Origin: an uncultured archaeon
Lineage (GTDB): Archaea > Asgardarchaeota > Heimdallarchaeia > Heimdallarchaeales > Kariarchaeaceae
Direction of reading: 5' to 3'
NCBI GenBank assembly: GCA_964645535.1
Contig: CAZYCQ010000070.1
Span: 1-14,527, forward strand
DNA: 14,527 nucleotides
This document shows positions 4,421-14,428 of this stretch, piece by piece. Under the pieces are notes generated by a model. That model made no database searches, was not told the DNA's origin, and saw only the letters and a program-made list of their open reading frames with translations. Positions within the stretch are counted from its first letter, which is position 1. Every line of letters begins with the position of its first letter. Both the position numbers and the translations under genes were made by a program.

Positions 4421-5380
4421 TCATATCAACCATGGATTGACCCATTCGATGGTTTGTGCATGTTCAAGGAATTGATCTAGATATGGATAATCTATCAATT
4501 TCAGATACTCTACAAGATAATGTTCAAGATCCAACCCAATGGAATATCTTAGTCGATCAATGTCAAATTTGGTTTGTTCATCAAGGTCAGGATAATTCCT
4601 TACCATTTCAGCCATACTTGTGATGGTAGCCCTAGCGGAATATAAGATTTCACGTAATTCAGAAATTCGACCTTTCTTCCCTAGTTTTTCGAGTTTCTTG
4701 AGAAGATTTGTCTTTTGGATGAGAGAATATTTGGCATCTAGAATTTCGGGTGCACCACCGAGCATAAATCCCCCTTTTTCATTGACAAATTGGATTGCCT
4801 GCAAGCATTCCTTATCAAAATTCGAACAACACGACTGTCCAAGATAGTCGACGACAGAAGAGATGTAATGGTCGAAATCCAAAGAACCAGTGTTTGGAAA
4901 CCGGAAATGTCGCTGTGTAAGTAATCCCCAAAAAATAACAGTCAGAAATTCTTTGGGTAGCCTTTGAAAACCAAGCTTTACAGCTCTAGGAATTGCATCA
5001 TCTTTCTCGATGGGTTCATCCTTGTTTTCAAAATAGGCCTTTACTACCTTTTGGATCTCAGCTTCAATCTCTTCCACTGAAAGATTGAATCTTTGCCCAT
5101 CAGTGATTATTCGATTGCATTGACCTAAAAGGAGTTCTAGAGCCGCAATATTTGTATCGCTTCCAACCATCAGAATAGAGCCATCTTCCAGCTGACGGAA
5201 TTTGATTGTGAAACCTTTTGCCTGGATTACTTGTAGGGGATTGGAAGTGAGTTCGTTTGAGACTGAATAAATTGCCTTGAAGATACCTGTAATCAGATAA
5301 GGATCCTTTGAAAAGGGCTTGCCCACTTCGACGAATATATCGGGAGGGCCGTCTTTGGTGGTGATCACGAAAGAACTCAT
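4421..5380 (-). CDS. Longin-like domain protein with a putative C-terminal DENN-like region
   Basis: Residues 1-115 have a beta-beta-alpha-beta-beta-beta-alpha pattern with DPYLITGIFKAIYSVSNEL, resembling the helix-1 signature of Asgard longin domains. Residues 138-181 resemble the start of the cDENN core. Confidence 0.6.
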   Translation of the reverse strand: MSSFVITTKDGPPDIFVEVGKPFSKDPYLITGIFKAIYSVSNELTSNPLQVIQAKGFTIKFRQLEDGSILMVGSDTNIAALELLLGQCNRIITDGQRFNLSVEEIEAEIQKVVKAYFENKDEPIEKDDAIPRAVKLGFQRLPKEFLTVIFWGLLTQRHFRFPNTGSLDFDHYISSVVDYLGQSCCSNFDKECLQAIQFVNEKGGFMLGGAPEILDAKYSLIQKTNLLKKLEKLGKKGRISELREILYSARATITSMAEMVRNYPDLDEQTKFDIDRLRYSIGLDLEHYLVEYLKLIDYPYLDQFLEHAQTIEWVNPWLI

Positions 5381-5392
5381 ACTACATCAACT

Positions 5393-5830
5393 TCAGGTCT
5401 GTCGTGAGAAATAAATCGAACCTACACCCGCAACAAAGCCGCCAAATTCCACCACCATTGAGACGTTGGTAATTGCGAATGCAGTGACTTCATTGAAGCT
5501 GCCCAAAGCCAATATCAAATCAATAAGCTGTTTCAGAAAGAAGAAAAAGAAACAGGCGACCAGAAGGTATTGAGGGGTAAGGTTCAGTTTAACACCAGTC
5601 ATTTGAACTCTTTTCTTGTTTTTGCGGAATGCGTAATACCCATACCCTACAATCCCTGCACTGAACCACACTCCATTTATTTCTACTATAAGTGAGGTGG
5701 CAGTGAAAATTTCACGAGCCCAATCAAGATATTCCAACATTAGAAATGTGAAAATTGCCAGAAAAATATATCCATAAAAAATCACTCTGCCGAAAGGATG
5801 TAAGGGTTGATGATTGCTAGTGGAAGTCAT
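5393..5830 (-). CDS. Hypothetical integral membrane protein (about 4 TM helices)
   Basis: Four hydrophobic segments with a basic loop (RKNKKR). Tightly packed between neighbours. Start is ATG 5830 or GTG 5833, preceded by AGGA. Confidence 0.78.
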   Translation of the reverse strand: MTSTSNHQPLHPFGRVIFYGYIFLAIFTFLMLEYLDWAREIFTATSLIVEINGVWFSAGIVGYGYYAFRKNKKRVQMTGVKLNLTPQYLLVACFFFFFLKQLIDLILALGSFNEVTAFAITNVSMVVEFGGFVAGVGSIYFSRQT

Positions 5831-5851
5831 CACATCCTATATTATCTATCG

Positions 5852-7259: not shown

Positions 7260-7267
7260 TTATAAAG
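7260..7267 (+). promoter_or_regulatory. Putative TATA box for the helicase operon
   Basis: TTATAAAG in the divergent intergenic region upstream of the candidate helicase starts. Confidence 0.45.
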
Positions 7268-7312
7268 CAGAAAAGAGAAAGAGGTTTGAGGCGTGACTTG
7301 CAAGCAAAGAGA

Positions 7313-9949
7313 ATGCCAAAATTAATTATGGAAAAGGTGAAGCTGAAAAGGTCCTCAAAAATCATCAATTACCAGAAACCGGTTCTTGACCTTGCCTGCA
7401 ATATCACCAAGAAGGCAGACAGTATTTTTGAGGAGAAGCAGATTAATCTTGAGGATTTTTTTGGTACACCAAAAATAATTATTCAATTGGATCGTGACCC
7501 CATAAAGATTCCAGACAACCTAGAGGAAACAGAGGATATTGAAAAGTATGTCATAGAGTTGCTTCAGAATGAAGACCTAACCATTAAACTTGAAACCGAC
7601 AGGGTAGGAGGGATATTCAAATGGTATCCCAAAACAGACACCCTTCTTTTGGTTGTGGTCTATGGAGTCAATCCAACCAAGAACAAACATCATCTTCTGC
7701 CAACAACGGATTATCCAGTACGGTTGTTCCGAGCATCAAACGCTAGTACAGGAAATAGGGCCTCATTGGGAAAGATCTTGTTTTCTGCCATCAGTTGGAT
7801 GAAGGAAAATGAAAGAGAACAGATGGATCTCGACTACAAAAGATTCCTCAACAAATCTTTTCAGCCATTTCTTGATTTTCTATACTATGAAAGGCTTTCA
7901 ATCAGAAATCCAAAATACCGACCCCAATGTACGTACACCAAGCTTCCGAGTGACGACAATCGAGGGTATCTTGAAGTCAACGACCCTCCAAGACAGATTA
8001 CAGAAGGGGGAAACCAGATTGCTGCAAAGGACAAACAGGGAAACACATACTATTCTGTCAGGGTAGCAGATTATGATGAGCATGAACAGACGATCATAGT
8101 TGAAGACGGAGACAGAATCGAAGATTGGCCTGATGAAGGAATATTGTTTTTGGAAGGAGACATCGCCAGCAATCGCAGGAAAATGCAGGCAGTAAATCTT
8201 CTGATCAGTAGAACAAACCCGACATATTCCAAGCTTGCGGATCTGCTTATTAGACCATGGGGATTACCTCCTGCCGAATCCCTACCGCGATCCTATTTCC
8301 ATCCCAATATTTCCCATGCTATCGAGATCTCAAAGGGTCAGGCAGAAGCCATTGATCTTGCATTAAGCACGGATGATGTAGCCTTGATCCATGGACCTCC
8401 AGGTACAGGAAAAACCACTGTGATCGTTGAAATCATTCGACATATGGTGGCAAACGGAAAAAGGGTGCTAATGGTTGCCCCGACACATGTTGCAGTTGAC
8501 AATGTTCTTGAACGCGTTGCCCATGAGAAGGGGGTTGTCGCGGTCAGAGTGGGGGGAAGAAAATACATGCCAGATCACTTGAGAAAATATCGGCTACAGG
8601 ATCGGGTATACGATTTAAAAGACACATTGCCTTCGTTGCAGAATGCTAAAGGGGAAGATCCAGAACTAAAGAATCTTCAGGATGGATTTTTGGACAGGAT
8701 GAAGGAGAAGGATCAGCGATATTTTGAGAATCTTGTTCTTGATCAAGCAAATCTTGTTTGCGGAACAACAATTGGGATTGCAAGATTTTATGAGAAATCA
8801 ACCAAGAACCCAATCAATTTTGACATGCTTATTATTGATGAGGCAAGCAAGGCAACAGTCATGGAATTTTTGGTTCCTGCGGTCAGAGCAAGAAAATGGG
8901 TACTTGTGGGAGACCACAGGCAATTGCCACCGTATGTGAATGATCAAGAATTACGGATCTATGTGCAAAGATACTTTGAAACGTCAGAACAGGAGAAAAA
9001 GGATACAAATGGATCATTTGATGAACGTACCGATGAATTGGTCGGCCAACTCAGGAGATTCCATGAGGAACTTCATGCCTTAACGGCAGGTCAGACCGAG
9101 AACCATTGGAAAAAGATTGTTGAGTTGCTCAATTATGATAAGAGAGCCATCCAGTCGGTAGAAGAAATGGTCAATCTTGCATTGGGAAGTTGTTTCCATT
9201 ATTTCCTTCAGCGGGTTGATGAATCAAGAAATGCAAAATTGGTTTATCAACATAGAATGCCATCCATTTTGGCGAACTTCCTTGATGAAGTCATTTACAG
9301 GGGCAATCTTAAGACATCTACAGATGCGGCAGCACATGGATTTGTCCTTCCGAGGATCAAAAGCCTTGGCATCCCCCAAATTAAAGAACCAATGGTCTTT
9401 ATTTCCACAGAAAACTATCCAAATCCCCATGAGAGTCCTGGCAAGTGGAAAGGCTATCGGAATAGTGCGGAAGCGGACAGCATTGCAGAGATTATCTCGA
9501 ACATTATCACCATTGATGCAGAGAGTTTGGGGTTCAATGAGGAAAATCCAATGACAATTGGTGTCATCACATATTATGCAGACCAATCAAGGGAGATCAA
9601 TCGCCAGCTGAGGCTTCTTGATGGTCTAGTTCAAGAAAGAGGATGGAGATACAATGTACCCGGAAAGCCGATTAAGGTAAGGGTAAGTATTGTTGACAGA
9701 TTCCAAGGGCAAGAACAGGACATTGTCCTTTTGAGCTTGACAAGGAGCAATACACGAGGAAACATTGGATTCTTGAAAAACCTTCAACGGATCAATGTCA
9801 GCCTTTCGAGGGCGAAGCATAATCTTCTGATCATTGGAAATCATAGATTCTTCAAGAATCTCCGTGCACCAAAGAACAAACCGATCATCCTCAAAGAATT
9901 AGCCAAGTATACCCAGAAACACCGGCTTGTGAGAAGAATAAAATATTAG
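7313..9949 (+). CDS. Upf1/DNA2/NAM7-like superfamily 1B helicase (AAA_11/AAA_12 type)
   Basis: Q motif (SKGQAEAI), Walker A GPPGTGKT, Ia APTHVAVDNV, Walker B IIDEASK, III GDHRQLPP, IV QHRM, V VDRFQGQE, VI RINVSLSRAK. Start uncertain: TTG 7286, ATG 7313 or ATG 7328. Confidence 0.93.
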   Translation: MPKLIMEKVKLKRSSKIINYQKPVLDLACNITKKADSIFEEKQINLEDFFGTPKIIIQLDRDPIKIPDNLEETEDIEKYVIELLQNEDLTIKLETDRVGGIFKWYPKTDTLLLVVVYGVNPTKNKHHLLPTTDYPVRLFRASNASTGNRASLGKILFSAISWMKENEREQMDLDYKRFLNKSFQPFLDFLYYERLSIRNPKYRPQCTYTKLPSDDNRGYLEVNDPPRQITEGGNQIAAKDKQGNTYYSVRVADYDEHEQTIIVEDGDRIEDWPDEGILFLEGDIASNRRKMQAVNLLISRTNPTYSKLADLLIRPWGLPPAESLPRSYFHPNISHAIEISKGQAEAIDLALSTDDVALIHGPPGTGKTTVIVEIIRHMVANGKRVLMVAPTHVAVDNVLERVAHEKGVVAVRVGGRKYMPDHLRKYRLQDRVYDLKDTLPSLQNAKGEDPELKNLQDGFLDRMKEKDQRYFENLVLDQANLVCGTTIGIARFYEKSTKNPINFDMLIIDEASKATVMEFLVPAVRARKWVLVGDHRQLPPYVNDQELRIYVQRYFETSEQEKKDTNGSFDERTDELVGQLRRFHEELHALTAGQTENHWKKIVELLNYDKRAIQSVEEMVNLALGSCFHYFLQRVDESRNAKLVYQHRMPSILANFLDEVIYRGNLKTSTDAAAHGFVLPRIKSLGIPQIKEPMVFISTENYPNPHESPGKWKGYRNSAEADSIAEIISNIITIDAESLGFNEENPMTIGVITYYADQSREINRQLRLLDGLVQERGWRYNVPGKPIKVRVSIVDRFQGQEQDIVLLSLTRSNTRGNIGFLKNLQRINVSLSRAKHNLLIIGNHRFFKNLRAPKNKPIILKELAKYTQKHRLVRRIKY

Positions 9950-9951
9950 AT

Positions 9952-9956
9952 GAGGG
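9952..9956 (+). promoter_or_regulatory. Shine-Dalgarno-like site for the second gene of the helicase operon
   Basis: GAGGG ending 6 nt before ATG 9963, inside the 13-bp intergenic gap. Confidence 0.45.
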
Positions 9957-9962
9957 AACAGA

Positions 9963-11684
9963 ATGTTTTCGAGTACATTACGAAATTGGGCAAAACACAA
10001 CAAGGATTTTACCTCCACGCTTGTTCTCAAGTCAACAACACCAGTATCATTGTTCAAATTCACAAAAATTGAAGCCAGAACGAGAACCAAATTGGAACCT
10101 ATCGAATGGATGGTGTTGAAATGTGCAGATACCTTCGGTAAAGTGTCAAGGATTGAGGTTCACGCAATATCTGGATTTCAATTGCACATTATTGAGGAGA
10201 TCATGGAAAAACTTGAAGAATCAGGTCAACTCAAAATCGAGGATTTCGACAAGGAAATTCTTCACAAAAACCTTTCCCGTTTGGAAAATGAGCTAGGTGA
10301 TGGATGGAAAACACCTTTGGTTGAAAAGCTGCTTGAGAGGCCTATGATCATCCAATATTCGCTGACCGATTTTGGAAAAAAAGCCTTGAAAGGTAATTTT
10401 AAGACGCTTGAAGAAATAATCGACCTGTCGGTCTACATAACCGCTTCGCCATTCAAATTGTTTTTTGGAGACCTTGTGCTTAAGGCCCAAAGCTATGAGG
10501 AAATAGATGTGGATGCAGAGTTGGCAAATCGGGTCCTTTATCTTGCCCAGCAGGAAGGAAAGAAACTTGAAAATTCGATTGTCCCATTGGCAGTGACAAA
10601 TGAAACTGCAATCGCGGGTTTTGAAGTGGAATCGTCAAATTTCTGGTTGTTGCTTGATGTGGAGGAAGAAGACGACTTTTCCGAGGAGATTCCGTTTCTG
10701 CCCTTCATCACATCAATCGCATTTGTGAGATGGGATAGCCCAAGTGTAGCAGATCCATTGGCAAATTTCGTCAGACTTGAGGGAACCGTGAAGGAGGTAT
10801 TGAGTCAAGCCCTTTCAAAGCACTACAGGATAGTCAAGGATCTTATAGTCCAAGGGATTTCGCTCGAAAAGGATTCTGGAATTTGGACACTTGTCGCAGA
10901 TCTTGAAATGTTCAAGCTTATCAGAGATGTGGATCGGGAACCCATTGAGAAATACATTTCAGAAGTCGAGATAGACCTGTATGAAAACTGGAGGGTCAGC
11001 TTGTTACTCAAGCTTGAACCTATGGAGGAACTCGATGAAATATCATTATTTGTTGCAAGGTTCCACAGTAGGGTTGACAGACAAGGGTTTACGGAAGAAC
11101 AGGGGTATAATACTTGGGCAGAAATCCTGAATGAAGCAGGAAGAAAACCAAAAAGGAAGCAGTATAGAAATGCCTTGGATATTTTGCTTAAACATCGGGC
11201 AATTAAAGAAGAAAAACCCAAGATACAGAATTTGGTGGTGAATCTAGATTACTTGTTGTCCTATGCACAAAGGAAAAGACATGCATGGAAGTTTAACAGG
11301 ATAAGGATACTCGAATCTTTAATCAAACGAGCCAAAATCAAAAAGGTGTACTTCTACTGTACTGAAGAATTATTTGCAAAGATTGACGAGACGGATCAGT
11401 TTAATGAATGGAAGAAAAACGTCGACTTAAGGGTGGTTGAGGATATTGAAGAGAGCGTAAGATTTGCCGTGGATAATTATTTCCATTTCATTGGTATCGA
11501 TGAAGATAATGAAGAAGTTTTGGAAAAGCTCAACAAGAAAAAAGTGGATAAGATGAAAGTCGGCAAGAGGTTCATTGAATTGAAAGGGGACAAAAATCTT
11601 GAGATTCCAGAATTTGAACCGATTTTTCATTGGCTTCCAGAAAATATTCTCGATAAATTGTACAATGAATATTACTCAGATTAA
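9963..11684 (+). CDS. Helicase-associated protein: N-terminal winged helix, central unknown region, second wHTH-like segment, C-terminal degenerate PIN/NYN-like domain
   Basis: 573-aa ORF starting 13 bp after the helicase stop, with GAGGG upstream. wHTH pattern LEPIEWMVLK...VSRIEVHAISG...IIEEIMEKLEESGQL...YSLTDFGKKAL. The C-terminal alpha/beta region resembles Zc3h12a-like NYN. The CDS is secure, the domain calls are tentative. Confidence 0.7.
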   Translation: MFSSTLRNWAKHNKDFTSTLVLKSTTPVSLFKFTKIEARTRTKLEPIEWMVLKCADTFGKVSRIEVHAISGFQLHIIEEIMEKLEESGQLKIEDFDKEILHKNLSRLENELGDGWKTPLVEKLLERPMIIQYSLTDFGKKALKGNFKTLEEIIDLSVYITASPFKLFFGDLVLKAQSYEEIDVDAELANRVLYLAQQEGKKLENSIVPLAVTNETAIAGFEVESSNFWLLLDVEEEDDFSEEIPFLPFITSIAFVRWDSPSVADPLANFVRLEGTVKEVLSQALSKHYRIVKDLIVQGISLEKDSGIWTLVADLEMFKLIRDVDREPIEKYISEVEIDLYENWRVSLLLKLEPMEELDEISLFVARFHSRVDRQGFTEEQGYNTWAEILNEAGRKPKRKQYRNALDILLKHRAIKEEKPKIQNLVVNLDYLLSYAQRKRHAWKFNRIRILESLIKRAKIKKVYFYCTEELFAKIDETDQFNEWKKNVDLRVVEDIEESVRFAVDNYFHFIGIDEDNEEVLEKLNKKKVDKMKVGKRFIELKGDKNLEIPEFEPIFHWLPENILDKLYNEYYSD

Positions 11685-12944
11685 TGCGGGAAGTATTTGG
11701 GTTTTAACTTCTCCAAAGCCGACACGATAATGCTCGTTTTCGGCATAGGCAGTCATGATGACCGTATCATAATCTTCCAATGCCCTTCTAGTCTCACCAT
11801 TAGGAAGTTCAAGAGGTTCTTTGCCTCTCCACGTCAATTCCAATAGACAAGCCCGTGATTCCTTTGTGGGCCCACTTATTGTTCCCGTTCCACAAAGGTC
11901 TCCTGTCTGCATATTGCAACCAGTAACAGTATGATGCGTCAACATCTGGTCAATTGTCCAATAAAGATATTTGAAATTGGATTGCATAATCATAGCAGGT
12001 TCGGTCATGTTCTGCGTTTGCAAGAAGGTCTGCAAGGTAATATCAAAGCATGCATCAGATCCTGTTTTGAGGTATTCCATCGGCTCTGGAACCTGTTTTT
12101 CCCGTTCAGTACGAAAAGGCTCCAAAGCCTCGATGGTCACTACCCAAGGAGAAATCGACGTCGCAAAATTCTTTGCGGTGAAGGGTCCCAATGGACGGTA
12201 TTCCCATCCTTGAATATCTCGAGCACTCCAGTCGTTCAATATTACGAGTCCAAAAATATGATCAAGAGCTTCAGAAATAGGTATCGATCTCCCCAACTCA
12301 TTACCTTGTCCAATGACAAATCCCATTTCAAACTCAAAATCTAGAAAACGAGATGGAGAAAAGAAGGGAACTTCATGACCACCGGGACGAATCTGCCCCT
12401 TTGGACGATGGATATCTTGACCACTGAGGATAACTGAACTGGCTCGACCATGGTAACCGACAGGTAAGTGCAACCAATTATCTTGCAAAGCATTTTCTGG
12501 TCCACGGATGATGGTGCCAACATTAGTTGCATGGTATATGCTTGCATAAAAATCGGTGAATTCATTCACTTTGAATGGGAGATGCATAGTGGCATTGGAT
12601 TGAGGAATCAATGCATTTTGACGAAGTTCGGGATTGTCCCGCAATTCACCAGGTTTATCCTGTAAGAGATCAGACACGGTTTTCCTCACACGAGACCATA
12701 CATCTTTTCCTTTAGCCATAAACGAATTTAGAAAAGGATTGGAAAAAATCGGTTCATCAAGAATATCTTGAAAAAAGCCCTTCTCCTCAAGGAGTTGAAG
12801 ATCAAGAATATAATCTCCAATAGCCACACCCACCCTAGGTGATTTTTCGTCTGTTGAAAATACGCCATACGGTAGATTTTGAATGGGAAATGGATGTTTG
12901 GAACTATAATCAATGAAAGATTTTAGATTTGGATCTGTAGTCAT
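11676..12944 (-). CDS. fahA: Fumarylacetoacetase (full-length FAH with N-terminal domain)
   Basis: FPIQNLPYGVFS, DFYAS..HATNVG, YHGRASS, LDFEFEMG, NDWSARDIQ.WEY.PLGPF, GTGTISGP. Start reassigned to ATG 12944 (MTTDPNLKSF, 422 aa). Confidence 0.95.
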   Translation of the reverse strand: MTTDPNLKSFIDYSSKHPFPIQNLPYGVFSTDEKSPRVGVAIGDYILDLQLLEEKGFFQDILDEPIFSNPFLNSFMAKGKDVWSRVRKTVSDLLQDKPGELRDNPELRQNALIPQSNATMHLPFKVNEFTDFYASIYHATNVGTIIRGPENALQDNWLHLPVGYHGRASSVILSGQDIHRPKGQIRPGGHEVPFFSPSRFLDFEFEMGFVIGQGNELGRSIPISEALDHIFGLVILNDWSARDIQGWEYRPLGPFTAKNFATSISPWVVTIEALEPFRTEREKQVPEPMEYLKTGSDACFDITLQTFLQTQNMTEPAMIMQSNFKYLYWTIDQMLTHHTVTGCNMQTGDLCGTGTISGPTKESRACLLELTWRGKEPLELPNGETRRALEDYDTVIMTAYAENEHYRVGFGEVKTQILPALI

Positions 12945-13009
12945 TACTATTTTTGATTTTAGTTTTGTTTTTTTGTGTATCCATTCCATTGCTTGAAATT
13001 GGCATAAAA

Positions 13010-14428
13010 TTAGAACCATGGTTGGACTATCTTTTCACCTTTTTCATTCAACTTTCGAATGGCGAATGGTATCAGTCTAAGGGTTTCTTGGTCAAGGAAA
13101 ATGCGGTCATTCTTGCTTCGAATTAAACCGAGATTTGAAACGCTTTCCCGATTTTCACTCAATTTTTGCAACCAATGGAGCAAGGGAAATGCATAGTCTG
13201 CATATTGAGGATGTGATATTAGTTTTCCATCAGGATCATATTCCCGGAGAACTAGCTCACTTTCGAGTTCACGGTTGAGTCTAAGGAGAATGCCTTCAAT
13301 AAGAAGTGGATTGCCTTCATCCTGAAACAAGGAATAAAGAGAAAGTATACGTTCCATTTCTGTGAAAGTCCGTTCCAGCCATGTTCGAAAGCCATCACGT
13401 GGCCCACCAGGCATATCCGGTGCCCGTCCGGGTATCTTTCCGAATGAATTGAAGAAATAATCAATGTATTTTTCGAATTTTACATCTTTTTGTGAACCGC
13501 TTCGATAACGGGCGCTCAACCAAGTATTCATCAGATACCCGTCCCTGTTCACATTGGGAATCAAGGTAAATTGATTCCAAGAAAACAAAAATTTCTTGGT
13601 TTCCTTTACCAAGGTATACGCAAACAACAGCACTGTTGCTGTAAAACGAGAATAGACATCCGGATCCATCAGGAGATCATCAAGGAGAGTGAAAAACGGG
13701 CTGGGATCCAGCTTCGTCAGGATTTCCGATTCATCCCAATAAACCAGAAGACGGCCAAGAAGGTAAATCTGCCAAAATCCAAGGCGAGGATATACCCGTG
13801 CATCCTTGTATCCTTTGAATTTAGCAATCAGCATCTCCAATAGCCGCAAATCGTTGCTTTCTGCAAAACGGCTCCATTCCCGTTCTATCACCTTCCTCAC
13901 ATTTTTGAAGGAAGAAGGACGCACAATTGGATCTTCTTCACCATTTGCTAAACGGTCAAGGTAGAGCGGGTCTTTTTTTTCCTCAATCAATCGTATCATT
14001 GAATTCAGGAAATCGATCTGGGCTTCAAATGCTTCATTCAATATGTCCCTAAGCAAATCAGATGGATTAGGTGGATCCAGTCTGACCTTGAATTTGGCTT
14101 GGAAAATAAGAGTCATTTCCTTGAAAAGGAAACGGTTAAGTGTCTTGAACTTTGCAACAGACCGTACCCTTTGCTGATAGGATTCAGGATCGAATTTTCT
14201 TTTATAATAATTTGAGAAATCCCATTTTTCTGGAATTTGTGTAGGAGAACCTCTTCTCGGTCCAATAACTTTCTTTTTCTCTTTTTCTTGATCTCCCTCT
14301 TTTTCATTTGGTTGGGCATCCAGATTTGGGTCTTTTTTTGATTTGTCAGGTGGTTTGAAGTCAAGGTTTGGAGGGTTACCTGCCACAAGAGACCTATCAC
14401 CATATAGATTAAAAGGAAACCCTTCCAA
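13010..14428 (-). CDS. Hypothetical, largely alpha-helical protein with a charged low-complexity N-terminal region
   Basis: 472-codon ORF with no competing long ORF. K/E/D/P-rich segment at about residues 20-65 and one HEAT-like motif (LLDDLLMDPDVYSRFTATVLL). The TTG start is uncertain. Confidence 0.72.
   Translation of the reverse strand: MEGFPFNLYGDRSLVAGNPPNLDFKPPDKSKKDPNLDAQPNEKEGDQEKEKKKVIGPRRGSPTQIPEKWDFSNYYKRKFDPESYQQRVRSVAKFKTLNRFLFKEMTLIFQAKFKVRLDPPNPSDLLRDILNEAFEAQIDFLNSMIRLIEEKKDPLYLDRLANGEEDPIVRPSSFKNVRKVIEREWSRFAESNDLRLLEMLIAKFKGYKDARVYPRLGFWQIYLLGRLLVYWDESEILTKLDPSPFFTLLDDLLMDPDVYSRFTATVLLFAYTLVKETKKFLFSWNQFTLIPNVNRDGYLMNTWLSARYRSGSQKDVKFEKYIDYFFNSFGKIPGRAPDMPGGPRDGFRTWLERTFTEMERILSLYSLFQDEGNPLLIEGILLRLNRELESELVLREYDPDGKLISHPQYADYAFPLLHWLQKLSENRESVSNLGLIRSKNDRIFLDQETLRLIPFAIRKLNEKGEKIVQPWF

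Follow-up and report, generated by a model that had tools for sequence, protein, structure and literature searches.

The 573-amino-acid Kariarchaeaceae (Asgard) protein analysed here very probably ends in a diverged NYN homologue and is probably the wHTH-beta-wHTH-NYN partner of a Upf1/Mokosh-type helicase, the two genes forming a vertically inherited, single-copy operon of the family. Its residues 421-555 are very probably a highly diverged but true homologue of the Zc3h12a-type NYN RNase domain. The gene pair has the layout of a cnuHE-type module, in which a UPF1-like helicase gene is followed by a downstream wHTH-effector gene, with the NYN-like domain in the effector slot. Because the partner gene always comes after a Upf1/Mokosh-type helicase, we read the pair as an archaeal variant of the bacterial helicase-plus-effector pairs and not as a forerunner of eukaryotic RNA surveillance. 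Our search of the literature on Asgard archaea with UPF1/NYN or with Mokosh found no description of the Kariarchaeaceae pair.

The features of the window, the whole stretch of 14,527 nucleotides that was analysed, are collected in Table 1. The helicase reading frame has two alternative starts, TTG 7298 and ATG 7313, either of which may be the true one. A Shine-Dalgarno-like element, GAGGGA, lies inside the short spacer between the two genes, and in some orthologous loci the genes abut or overlap by 1 or 4 nt. The pair is flanked by genes for an MFS transporter, an acetyl-CoA synthetase, an FAA hydrolase and Trm5/TYW2. No terminator was found 3′ of the partner gene, a result that says little for an archaeon because the scan relies on bacterial consensus patterns.

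Table 1. Coordinates of the helicase-partner locus and of positions within the partner protein
Feature	Position in window	Strand	Description
TATA-like TTATAAAG	7260-7267		upstream of the helicase gene
Helicase gene	7286..9949	+	Upf1-like SF1B, 887 aa from TTG 7286
Intergenic spacer	9950..9962	+	13 nt, from helicase stop TAG to partner start ATG
Partner gene	9963..11684	+	573-aa multidomain protein without a Pfam, NCBIfam or PADLOC family
N-terminal module	9963..10400	+	residues 1-146: helix, long beta-hairpin, MarR-like winged helix-turn-helix (42-146)
Middle region	10401..11027	+	residues 147-355, beta-rich by secondary structure of the model
Second small winged-helix-like domain	11028..11222	+	residues 356-420; invariant R366, G375, F376
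Divergent Zc3h12a-like NYN/PIN domain	11223..11627	+	residues ~421-555; catalytic set degenerate
Asn427 codon AAT	11241-11243	+	position of the first catalytic Asp (Regnase-1 D141); GAT/GAC would encode Asp
Asp475 codon GAC	11385-11387	+	invariant in 27/27; pairs with the conserved Asp in the 'Q-I-D' motif of canonical domains
Asp513 codon GAT	11499-11501	+	position of the last catalytic Asp (Regnase-1 D244, 'SND')

An earlier note on this DNA, made from the sequence alone, had proposed that positions 11223-11600 encode a catalytically dead, Regnase-type domain. Translation of the reading frame confirmed the sequence as quoted there (residues 421-546, reading NLVVNLDYLL..., WKFNRIRILESLIKRAKIKKVYFYCTEELFAKIDETDQFNEW, LRVV and IEESVRFAVDNYFHFIGID), although the domain as a whole runs a little beyond that span, to about residue 555. 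The 573-aa protein gave nothing significant in Pfam, NCBIfam, PADLOC or the PDB, whether searched as a single sequence or with family profiles, and PF11977 (gathering score 23 bits) matched neither the window protein nor 21 family members at E values up to 1. The AF2 model of the C-terminal domain (pLDDT 92.6) has a predicted PIN-like three-layer alpha/beta fold with NYN topology. Its best VIA match was ZC3H12C (7ndj_A; Z 11.6, rmsd 2.9 Å over 130 residues), followed by PRORP1 (10.5), MRPP3 (8.4), Rae1/YacP (7.6), HARP (7.1) and, lower, Utp23 (5.1), where models without a true match typically reach a best Z of 7-8. Foldseek placed KHNYN, ZC3H12B/C, Regnase-1 and MCPIP1 at the top, with probability 1.0 and target TM of 0.52-0.65. 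When the family C-terminal alignment was compared by hhalign with 14 canonical Asgard PF11977 domains, 119 columns aligned with a probability of 83.9% and an E value of 7.7e-6, that is, 84% and not >95%. In the reverse direction, the family profile picked up TPR+PF11977 proteins of other Asgard genomes through their NYN domain, and one 190-aa match carries intermediate motifs. A search for related loci with a 5-sequence alignment returned two Heimdallarchaeota contigs only. The resemblance of residues 421-546 to the NYN pattern exceeds chance, because both the hhalign probability and the VIA score stand out, the latter against the typical 7-8.

A HAD-type phosphatase was also considered, since 'VVDLD..LS', the consensus of the family, looks like HAD motif I (DxDxT/V). 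The likeness extends to a DxD at the end of strand 1 and an S/T at the end of strand 2, followed by K473 and D475, and weak Pfam matches occur in the family (DUF5752 at 6.8e-4 in one member, HAD_SAK_2 at 0.14 in another or the same member). However, the chains with HAD-fold domains among the VIA matches listed, P-type ATPases such as 2voy_I, scored Z 5.6-5.8 against 11.6 for ZC3H12C, hhalign paired the whole domain including its C-terminal hairpin with NYN, and the family profile matched PF11977 proteins. With fold and profile comparisons favouring NYN, the HAD reading of 'VVDLD' was set aside as having a negligible probability. The fold call of the earlier note held in the checks by VIA, Foldseek and profile comparison: NYN/PIN families came out on top, with Zc3h12a, Regnase and KHNYN closest.

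The full-length partner model (mean pLDDT 91.4) gives the protein a predicted wHTH-beta-wHTH-NYN layout. Its MarR-like wHTH superimposed on MarR (5h3r_A) with a VIA Z of 10.9 and an rmsd of 1.8 Å over 76 residues, and Foldseek matched the N-terminal module to MarR-type regulators at probability 1.0. Remote homologues of this module (P0028, P0030 and a protein of genome G162) are also located after Upf1-like helicases. The second winged-helix-like domain resembled the WHB domains of cullins (3dpl_C, 3rtr_A; Z 9.1). None of the matches listed in either full-length fold search was centred on the middle region, both being dominated by the wHTH and NYN domains.

Catalytic columns were scored over 27 distinct family sequences from the hhalign columns, the predicted secondary structure and the register to an invariant Ala. 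The degenerate catalytic set described in the earlier note was borne out: the window protein has Asn at the first catalytic Asp (N427, the equivalent of Regnase-1 D141N), the Asp of the 'AD' motif is not recoverable, and 'SND' reads G-I-D (G511, I512-D513). The last Asp is retained here as D513. The position of Regnase D226, counted back from the invariant A502, is I495, where hhalign places a gap; it is unconserved across the family and without an acidic residue in the window protein. The prokaryotic D2 position is T, S or P and never acidic in the 27 sequences. In the last-Asp column, R occurs in 12 sequences, K in 4 and D in 3, the Asp being that of the window protein and two close relatives. 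Most of the Regnase-1-equivalent set (D141, D225/D226 and D244, with N144 and S242) is accordingly missing from the window protein; its genome also encodes canonical, intact NYN domains.

The first-Asp column reads D in 25 and N in 2 of the 27 sequences. Because 25 of 27 relatives keep this Asp, the Asn is, judging from the aligned sequences, a feature of two genomes, the other catalytic losses being family-wide. The term 'catalytically dead' may fit by homology, Regnase-1 D141N being without RNase activity (PMC7145602), but the substitution that it leans on is found in these two genomes only. By the same homology, we consider it reasonably probable that the window copy has lost canonical nuclease activity. 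The domain nevertheless remains under constraint. Its mean pairwise identity is 33%, compared with 32-38% for the other partner domains, and its dN is 0.20; only dN is reported per domain because dS was saturated even against the closest relative. Purifying selection acts on it as on the rest of the protein.

This constraint also bears on the alternative that the domain is still an active nuclease, in which a rearranged acidic cluster (N/D427, D429, D475, D478, E493, D494 and D513) replaces the Regnase tetrad and the pair works as a helicase-nuclease machine. The family has conserved acids of its own, at positions 429 (D or E, 25/27), 475 (27/27), 478 (24/27) and 493 (24/27), although Asp475 does not align with any known catalytic Asp. 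Asn can still ligate Mg2+, and together with these acids it makes a non-canonical metal site possible. Five acidic columns are kept in at least 24 of the 27 sequences, the last Asp persists in the window protein and in the two relatives nearest to it, an intact NYN domain occurs fused to a related helicase (see below), and the effector slot of this helicase clade is normally filled by a nuclease (PMC11090510). On the other hand, the window protein carries the exact equivalent of the nuclease-dead Regnase-1 D141N, the Mg-ligand position D226 is hydrophobic or in a gap depending on the alignment, and the last Asp is Arg or Lys in 16 of 27 sequences, which is hard to reconcile with one common metal site; the intact NYN domains of the same genome provide the canonical pattern for comparison. 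We therefore regard an active nuclease as unlikely.

The upstream gene encodes a helicase with Pfam matches to AAA_11 (4.9e-43) and AAA_12 (3.9e-38) and with all helicase motifs invariant in 13 orthologues. Among PDB chains, IGHMBP2 (3.1e-39) scored slightly better than UPF1 (5.5e-36), and the PADLOC profile of MkoA (PDLC03920) scored far better than both (E 4.6e-112; helicase residues 241-878 on profile positions 519-1099 of 1112). Pfam found no domain, and so no UPF1 CH domain, in residues 1-340. Among the 120 best matches, the nearest relatives outside the family were prokaryotic, bacterial helicases of about 932 aa; none of the named ones was eukaryotic, those with names being archaeal or bacterial and most being unnamed metagenome proteins.

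The genomic coupling of the domain to a UPF1-like helicase and its Asgard origin, both suggested in the earlier note, were substantiated. In all 12 sampled genomes of Kariarchaeaceae, one family of the Heimdall group, the pair was present in single copy, and the SF1B helicase lay directly upstream in the same orientation in every locus examined. The full-length partner gene was found in none of the 388 other Asgard genomes searched, and the N-terminal region of the helicase is distributed like the pair, in the same genomes. A second line of evidence comes from a 1341-aa protein, P0069, in which a helicase of the same clade (35% identity over 98% of the query) shares one chain with an intact PF11977 domain (Pfam 1.3e-11) that keeps the DGxN, DD and SND motifs, without a wHTH module; this fusion is Rosetta-stone-type support for a functional link between helicase and NYN domain.

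A direct contact between the two proteins was also predicted. Modelling of helicase residues 245-887 with partner residues 1-355 gave an ipSAE of 0.60 (0.60, 0.54 and 0.62 in the individual runs), compared with 0.00 for the best control, with at least 83% of contacts in common between runs and a partner pLDDT of at least 83; the verdict of the tool was 'weak support'. Of 80 solved complexes 58 reach the mark applied, as do 2 of 110 mismatched pairs, but only 7 of the 80 solved complexes, and both of the passing mismatches, do so at scores of 0.60 or lower; these counts hold only roughly because our own alignments were supplied. We consider a physical helicase-partner complex fairly likely.

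What the pair does in the cell is a separate matter. It could be an antiviral relative of Mokosh and the CoCoNuTs, in which the helicase senses foreign RNA and the partner serves as effector or adaptor, with no part in housekeeping RNA metabolism. The helicase matches a defence protein, MkoA, at the E value given above, its nearest relatives outside the family are the ~932-aa bacterial helicases, and a helicase-then-wHTH-effector layout has been described for defence-linked operons (PMC11090510). Kariarchaeaceae have moreover been reported to be rich in defence systems (PMC11291487). The evolutionary rate of the partner is also about three times that of the helicase (dN 0.18 and 0.06, respectively; helicase identities of 93, 85 and 80% where those of the partner are 76, 59 and 52%), which fits an arms race. 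In contrast, the pair is single-copy in 12 of 12 family genomes, its neighbours, genes of metabolism and tRNA modification, are constant within the genus, and the six different contexts in which it was viewed showed no defence genes nearby. No PLD family match, and hence no MkoB/PLD, was found by Pfam among the window ORFs, and no McrBC-type gene among the window ORFs or related loci. The helicase is as conserved as the acetyl-CoA synthetase, and the catalytic set of the effector is eroded. Weighing these points, we give defence a little less than an even chance and lean slightly towards a conserved housekeeping or domesticated role over that of a mobile defence cassette. The more specific proposal that a Mokosh/cnuHE-type pair was domesticated into a core, family-wide RNA-surveillance module, with the pseudo-NYN domain as RNA-sensing or helicase-regulating subunit, is doubtful. 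If true, such a module would independently parallel UPF1 with its inactive and active PIN/NYN partners (SMG5/SMG6, Regnase-1, Smg6L), in a prokaryote of the archaeal class closest to eukaryotes.

The earlier note had gone further and called the pair a prokaryotic analogue or precursor of the UPF1 partnerships with Regnase-1 or with SMG5 and SMG6. A functional analogy is reasonable. The idea of a precursor draws on the presence, in an Asgard archaeon of the Heimdall group, of a Upf1-like helicase beside a Zc3h12a-like fold and on the recurrence of UPF1-NYN partnerships in eukaryotes, where Regnase-1 (PMC7145602) and, reportedly, Tetrahymena Smg6L (PMC5499736) are examples. It fails because the full-length pair was found in one family only (in none of the 388 other Asgard genomes searched), the helicase has no CH domain, MkoA is its best profile match and its nearest relatives outside the family are prokaryotic, no eukaryote being named among the 120 best matches. 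IGHMBP2 and UPF1 score about equally against the helicase, which has neither the CH domain nor the closest similarity to UPF1 that mark a eukaryotic UPF1 orthologue, and the NYN-like domain has diverged further from Regnase than have the ordinary PF11977 domains, which occur widely among Asgard genomes (in 55 of 151). We judge descent of the eukaryotic partnership from this pair highly improbable, and the finding does not bring the origin of NMD within reach of a test.

For the preferred reading, a diverged NYN homologue partnered with the helicase, the following working can be proposed. The winged-helix module at its N-terminus would anchor the partner to the helicase body. The helicase would translocate 5′-3′ on RNA, assumed here from family precedent, or less likely on ssDNA, and the NYN-like domain may receive the unwound strand. 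Because the canonical four-acid metal site is unconserved in the family and the window copy has the D141N equivalent, the most likely task of the domain here is to bind or sense nucleic acid or to regulate the helicase, rather than Regnase-type cleavage. The family offers a natural series for what becomes of a PIN-like fold after loss of catalysis, with members that keep the first and last Asp, carry the D141N equivalent, or have Arg or Lys in place of the last Asp. It also adds an NYN/PIN-like domain to the HEPN, Vsr-like and PLD effectors known before to follow UPF1-like helicases, and shows such a pair fixed, single-copy and syntenic across a whole Asgard family instead of scattered in defence islands.

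The closest known systems are those of Bell et al. 2024 (eLife), in whose description of Type II/III CoCoNuTs and their relatives the UPF1-like helicase CnuH is followed by CnuE, an elongated wHTH fused to an effector nuclease (PMC11090510). As there, the gene directly behind a Upf1-like SF1 helicase gene codes for a protein with a winged-helix start (MarR-like, 42-146, Z 10.9) and a nuclease-fold end (NYN-like, 421-555, Z 11.6), a likeness of architecture, and the genes are tightly spaced or overlapping. Both here and there a complex of helicase and effector has been predicted, by AF2 multimer in the published work (PMC11090510) and with 'weak support' in the present analysis. The effector is NYN/PIN-like in Kariarchaeaceae, whereas the effectors named in the description of CnuE are HEPN, Vsr-like and PLD, with NYN unmentioned there (PMC11090510). 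The window and related loci have no CnuB GTPase and CnuC, so that the pair is not a CoCoNuT proper; McrBC (CnuB/C) and TerY-P partners are absent, and the host is an archaeon, whereas CoCoNuTs are said in the same source to be 'nearly absent in archaea' (PMC11090510). The catalytic set is also degenerate in Kariarchaeaceae, and the pair is family-wide and syntenic, not island-borne.

Mokosh type I, which consists of the MkoA helicase and the MkoB PLD nuclease (Millman et al. 2022, as cited in PMC11291487), shares the two-gene helicase-plus-nuclease-fold layout, and the helicase matches MkoA over the whole core. It differs in that the Kariarchaeaceae partner has no PLD and no PADLOC match at E up to 0.01, that the MkoA match takes in only profile positions 519-1099 of 1112, and that a defence-island context is lacking. 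With the PF11977 domains of Regnase-1/MCPIP1, ZC3H12B-D, KHNYN, N4BP1 and prokaryotic homologues, the modelled domain shares fold and topology including the C-terminal extension, and it aligns with them at the Asp of the first strand, at the 'I-D' motif, at the invariant Ala in the helix that follows strand 3 and at the Gly/Ser-x-x turn behind strand 4. In contrast to them, residues 421-555 fall below Pfam detection, 'DGSN' reads 'D/N-L-D', no acidic residue stands at D226 and most sequences have Arg or Lys for the last Asp; the partner has no CCCH zinc finger and its NYN-like domain is embedded in a wHTH-rich protein.

SMG5 and Utp23 have non-catalytic PIN-like domains that are used as binding modules. 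The Kariarchaeaceae domain resembles them as a PIN-like fold under selection that has lost catalytic acids and lies beside an active RNA-processing machine, although the sequence relationship is at superfamily level only and a binding role here is conjectural. The P0069 fusion is alike in joining a helicase of the same clade to a Zc3h12a-type domain, but there the NYN domain is intact, covalently fused and without wHTH, whereas here it is a degenerate part of a separate partner. Coupling of helicase and NYN domain appears to have come about several times, with a separate partner here, a fusion in P0069 and the partners of UPF1 in eukaryotes, and this suggests convergence, not descent.

The 573-aa partner protein gave no sequence match in Pfam, NCBIfam, PADLOC or PDB, and it is rare, with 5 clusters in a 5.8-billion-protein set and 25 representatives in a 1.8-billion-protein set, of which ~16 were near full length, at identities down to 30%. 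When the alignment of these relatives was used as AlphaFold2 input, the full-length protein was modelled with a mean pLDDT of 91.4, and residues 398-573 modelled alone reached pLDDT 92.6 and pTM 0.83. Foldseek comparison of the C-terminal domain with the PDB gave KHNYN, ZC3H12B/C, Regnase-1 and MCPIP1 as top matches (probability 1.0, target-normalised TM 0.52-0.65, rmsd ~3.0-3.8 Å over ~145-150 columns), at E-values of only ~3e-3 to 4e-2. A Foldseek-independent all-against-all structural search placed ZC3H12C (7ndj_A) first (Z 11.6, rmsd 2.9 Å, 130 residues), followed by PRORP1 (Z 10.5), MRPP3 (8.4 and 8.1), Rae1/YacP (7.6), HARP (7.1) and then FEN/5′-nuclease and VapC-type PINs. Both searches agree with the Zc3h12a/Regnase-type NYN/PIN fold that the earlier note had read by eye. 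PIN-like matches lead, rather than the HAD, PLD or restriction endonuclease folds it had named as alternatives; listed chains with HAD-fold domains (P-type ATPases) reached only Z 5.6-5.8.

Canonical PF11977 domains are present in 55 of 151 Asgard genomes, including two in the source genome. When the family C-terminal alignment was compared by hhalign with 14 aligned canonical Asgard domains, the match spanned the whole domain (probability 83.9%, E 7.7e-6, 119 columns). In the reverse search, the family profile found TPR-NYN proteins of other Asgard genomes through their NYN domain (E ~2e-6 to 2e-5 per genome); both TPR-NYN ORFs scanned passed PF11977 (6.2e-16 and 8e-11), and a third has canonical motifs by eye. 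One 190-aa profile match carries intermediate motifs ('AVDL..N' and 'S..KVDE', with later Asp motifs intact).

Coordinates of the gene pair, its neighbours, partner domains and catalytic positions, and related loci (family counts: 27 distinct sequences)
Feature	Position	Strand	Detail
Helicase gene	7286-9949	+	887-codon frame
Partner gene	9963-11684	+	open frame, 573 codons
Flagged span	11223-11600	+	partner residues 421-546
First Asp (Regnase-1 D141, 'DGSN')	N427, 11241-11243	+	codon AAT; family D 25, N 2 (source genome and one congener)
'ADAAL' Asp following strand 2 in prokaryotic NYNs	T467		family T 12, S 12, P 3
'Q-I-D' Asp, conserved, without known catalytic role	D475		family D 27
Position before Regnase D226 (D225)	D494		family D or E in 12
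Helix-start Asp before invariant Ala (Regnase D226)	I495 by register from A502		hhalign gap; family unconserved
Last Asp (Regnase D244), in the 'S-N-D' that follows strand 4	G511-I512-D513		position 513: R 12, K 4, D 3
Helix, then long hairpin	partner N-terminus		full-length model
MarR-like winged helix	residues 42-146		full-length model, Z 10.9
Beta-rich region	residues 147-355		full-length model
Second small winged helix, cullin WHB-like	residues 356-420		full-length model, Z 9.1
NYN-like domain	C-terminal, after second winged helix		full-length model
319-aa ORF	4421-5380	-	
146-aa ORF	5393-5833	-	
Fumarylacetoacetase gene	11676-13019	-	convergent
472-aa ORF	13010-14428	-	
Membrane-anchored NYN protein gene, source genome	G000:C19, L026:220-1941	+	573 aa
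Cousin system, two sister-family genomes	L061 (G162:C256), L063 (G162:C297); G152:C553, G152:C659		
Locus with remote homologue P0028	L071:2734-7410		469 aa, after 1040-1085-aa helicase
Locus with remote homologue P0030	L069:2811-8253		750 aa, after 1040-1085-aa helicase

Catalytic residues were mapped by hhalign columns and counted over the family. Translation of residues 421-546 was identical to the text quoted in the earlier note, and its description of the site held for the first catalytic Asp, which reads Asn, and for the AD motif, which is not evident at the gapped D226 position. The claim that ND reads ID was right as sequence (I512-D513), but the last Asp is kept and the changed residue is the Asn before it. 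The canonical site is eroded across the whole family, and the D-to-N change is specific to two genomes. D141N Regnase-1 has no RNase activity (PMC7145602). From these residues we infer, on good grounds, that the source genome's copy would be catalytically dead. Family-specific acids are conserved at positions 429, 478 and 493, and a non-canonical active site in the domain is conceivable, which we consider rather unlikely; the NYN-like effector is probably non-catalytic. The domain is not decaying: at 33%, identity averaged over sequence pairs is on a par with the partner's other domains (32-38%), and the comparison with its closest relative gives a dN of 0.20, dS being saturated.

In contrast, a 573-aa membrane-anchored protein of the source genome has a fully canonical NYN domain ('VDGSNVAW', 'ADAAL', 'ADHFILRLA', 'SND'). 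At its N-terminus is a signal peptide or TM segment, followed by a long Ser/Thr/Asn-rich region, presumably extracellular, a TM helix and the cytoplasmic C-terminal NYN domain, an unusual, membrane-anchored form of Regnase-type RNase. ORFs of ~570-640 aa with PF11977 at the same position recur across the order.

By its Pfam signature (AAA_11 and AAA_12) the upstream gene encodes a Upf1-like SF1B helicase, with all ATPase and helicase motifs invariant in 13 orthologues. Its best profile match was PADLOC MkoA (4.6e-112), and its closest solved structures were IGHMBP2 (3.1e-39) and UPF1 (5.5e-36), then Nam7, DNA2 and SEN1. No CH domain was recognisable with Pfam. Relatives outside the family were archaeal metagenome proteins (43-45%) and then ~932-aa bacterial proteins (33-37%); the 120 best hits are mostly unnamed, and none of those with a name is eukaryotic. 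The earlier note's suggestion of a forerunner of UPF1-Regnase or NMD is not supported and seems to us highly improbable. P0069, a 1341-aa JGI/Logan metagenome protein, combines a helicase of this clade (35% core identity, with a recognisable resemblance in the N-terminal region) and an intact C-terminally fused PF11977 NYN domain (residues 1051-1173) followed by ~170 more residues.

The genomic coupling postulated earlier is real and strict. At every locus examined, the partner gene lies directly 3′ of an 870-930-aa AAA_11/AAA_12 helicase, with spacers of -4 to +13 nt, and this holds at loci whose other neighbours differ completely; the window's 13-nt spacer contains a GAGGGA element. Among 400 Asgard genomes searched, the full-length partner was found as a single copy in 12/12 genomes of one GTDB family and in 0/388 of the remainder, and the N-terminal 345 residues of the helicase have an identical distribution on the same contigs. 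Orthologous helicases at NCBI are named Candidatus Kariarchaeaceae or Heimdallarchaeota, including LC_2. Helicase identities (93/85/80/68/65/57%) are far above those of the partner (76/59/52/36/43/33%) and comparable with the neighbouring acetyl-CoA synthetase.

A TATA-like TTATAAAG stands ~20 nt ahead of the TTG at 7286 from which the helicase frame is counted (window 7260-7313); the gene caller reports an 883-aa product from TTG 7298, and orthologue alignments begin at about ATG 7313. Any of these candidates may be the true start, and the transcript may be nearly leaderless. Downstream, the last 9 nt of the partner gene (11676-11684) overlap the 3′ end of the fumarylacetoacetase gene; a scan with bacterial patterns, in an archaeal host, found no terminator-like element between them. 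The 472-aa ORF has no family match, is conserved between FAA-hydrolase and Trm5/TYW2 methyltransferase genes in relatives, and evolves at about the partner's rate (76/60/48% identity). The conserved 319-aa and 146-aa ORFs, without Pfam or NCBIfam family, are syntenic with an MFS gene in close relatives.

Two sister-family genomes hold a cousin system in the order actin/Hsp70-like ATPase (596 aa, MreB_Mbl 8e-14), Upf1-like helicase and partner. The cousin partner, at least 970 aa from broken contigs and without any Pfam domain, has only the N-terminal module (residues ~23-228) in common with the window protein. Two further remote homologues of this module, P0028 and P0030 from other archaeal metagenomes, directly follow Upf1-like helicases and contain no informative Pfam domain. 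Radical-SAM and AAA genes lie downstream of one, and an 873-aa protein without assignment upstream of the other. The recurrence of this winged-helix module after helicases marks it as the constant, helicase-linked part and the C-terminal domain as the variable effector.

Other helicase-linked proteins share this module, and a model of Bell et al. has a wHTH in contact with the helicase (PMC11090510); helicase 245-887 was therefore paired with partner 1-355 for complex prediction. The ipSAE was 0.60 (runs 0.60, 0.54 and 0.62) against 0.00 for the best control; runs had at least 83% of contacts in common and partner pLDDT of at least 83, and the tool returned 'weak support'. The score mark was passed by 58/80 solved complexes and 2/110 mismatches, counts that are rough here as own alignments were used, and at ipSAE ≤0.60 by only 7 of the 80 and both passing mismatches. 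Taken with the strict operon coupling, the prediction suggests that helicase and partner quite probably form a physical complex.

The pair may serve either in defence or in host RNA surveillance; family universality, synteny, helicase conservation and the lack of defence neighbours make us lean slightly towards a domesticated, vertically inherited role. Leão et al. report that Asgard archaea have Mokosh and that defence systems are numerous in Kariarchaeaceae, without mention of the window pair (PMC11291487); our literature search found no published description of this pair. The helicase resembles that of Mokosh type I, but the window pair lacks the PLD partner. Bell et al. place a wHTH-effector gene after that of a UPF1-like helicase, list HEPN, Vsr-like and PLD effectors, NYN being absent from their paper, and state that CoCoNuTs are 'nearly absent in archaea' (PMC11090510). 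The pair is better described as a variant of the helicase-plus-wHTH-effector module that is archaeal, spans the family and has an NYN-like effector. Because it fits this layout of Bell et al. but, unlike CoCoNuTs, is without McrBC, it is a relative of CoCoNuTs rather than a CoCoNuT.
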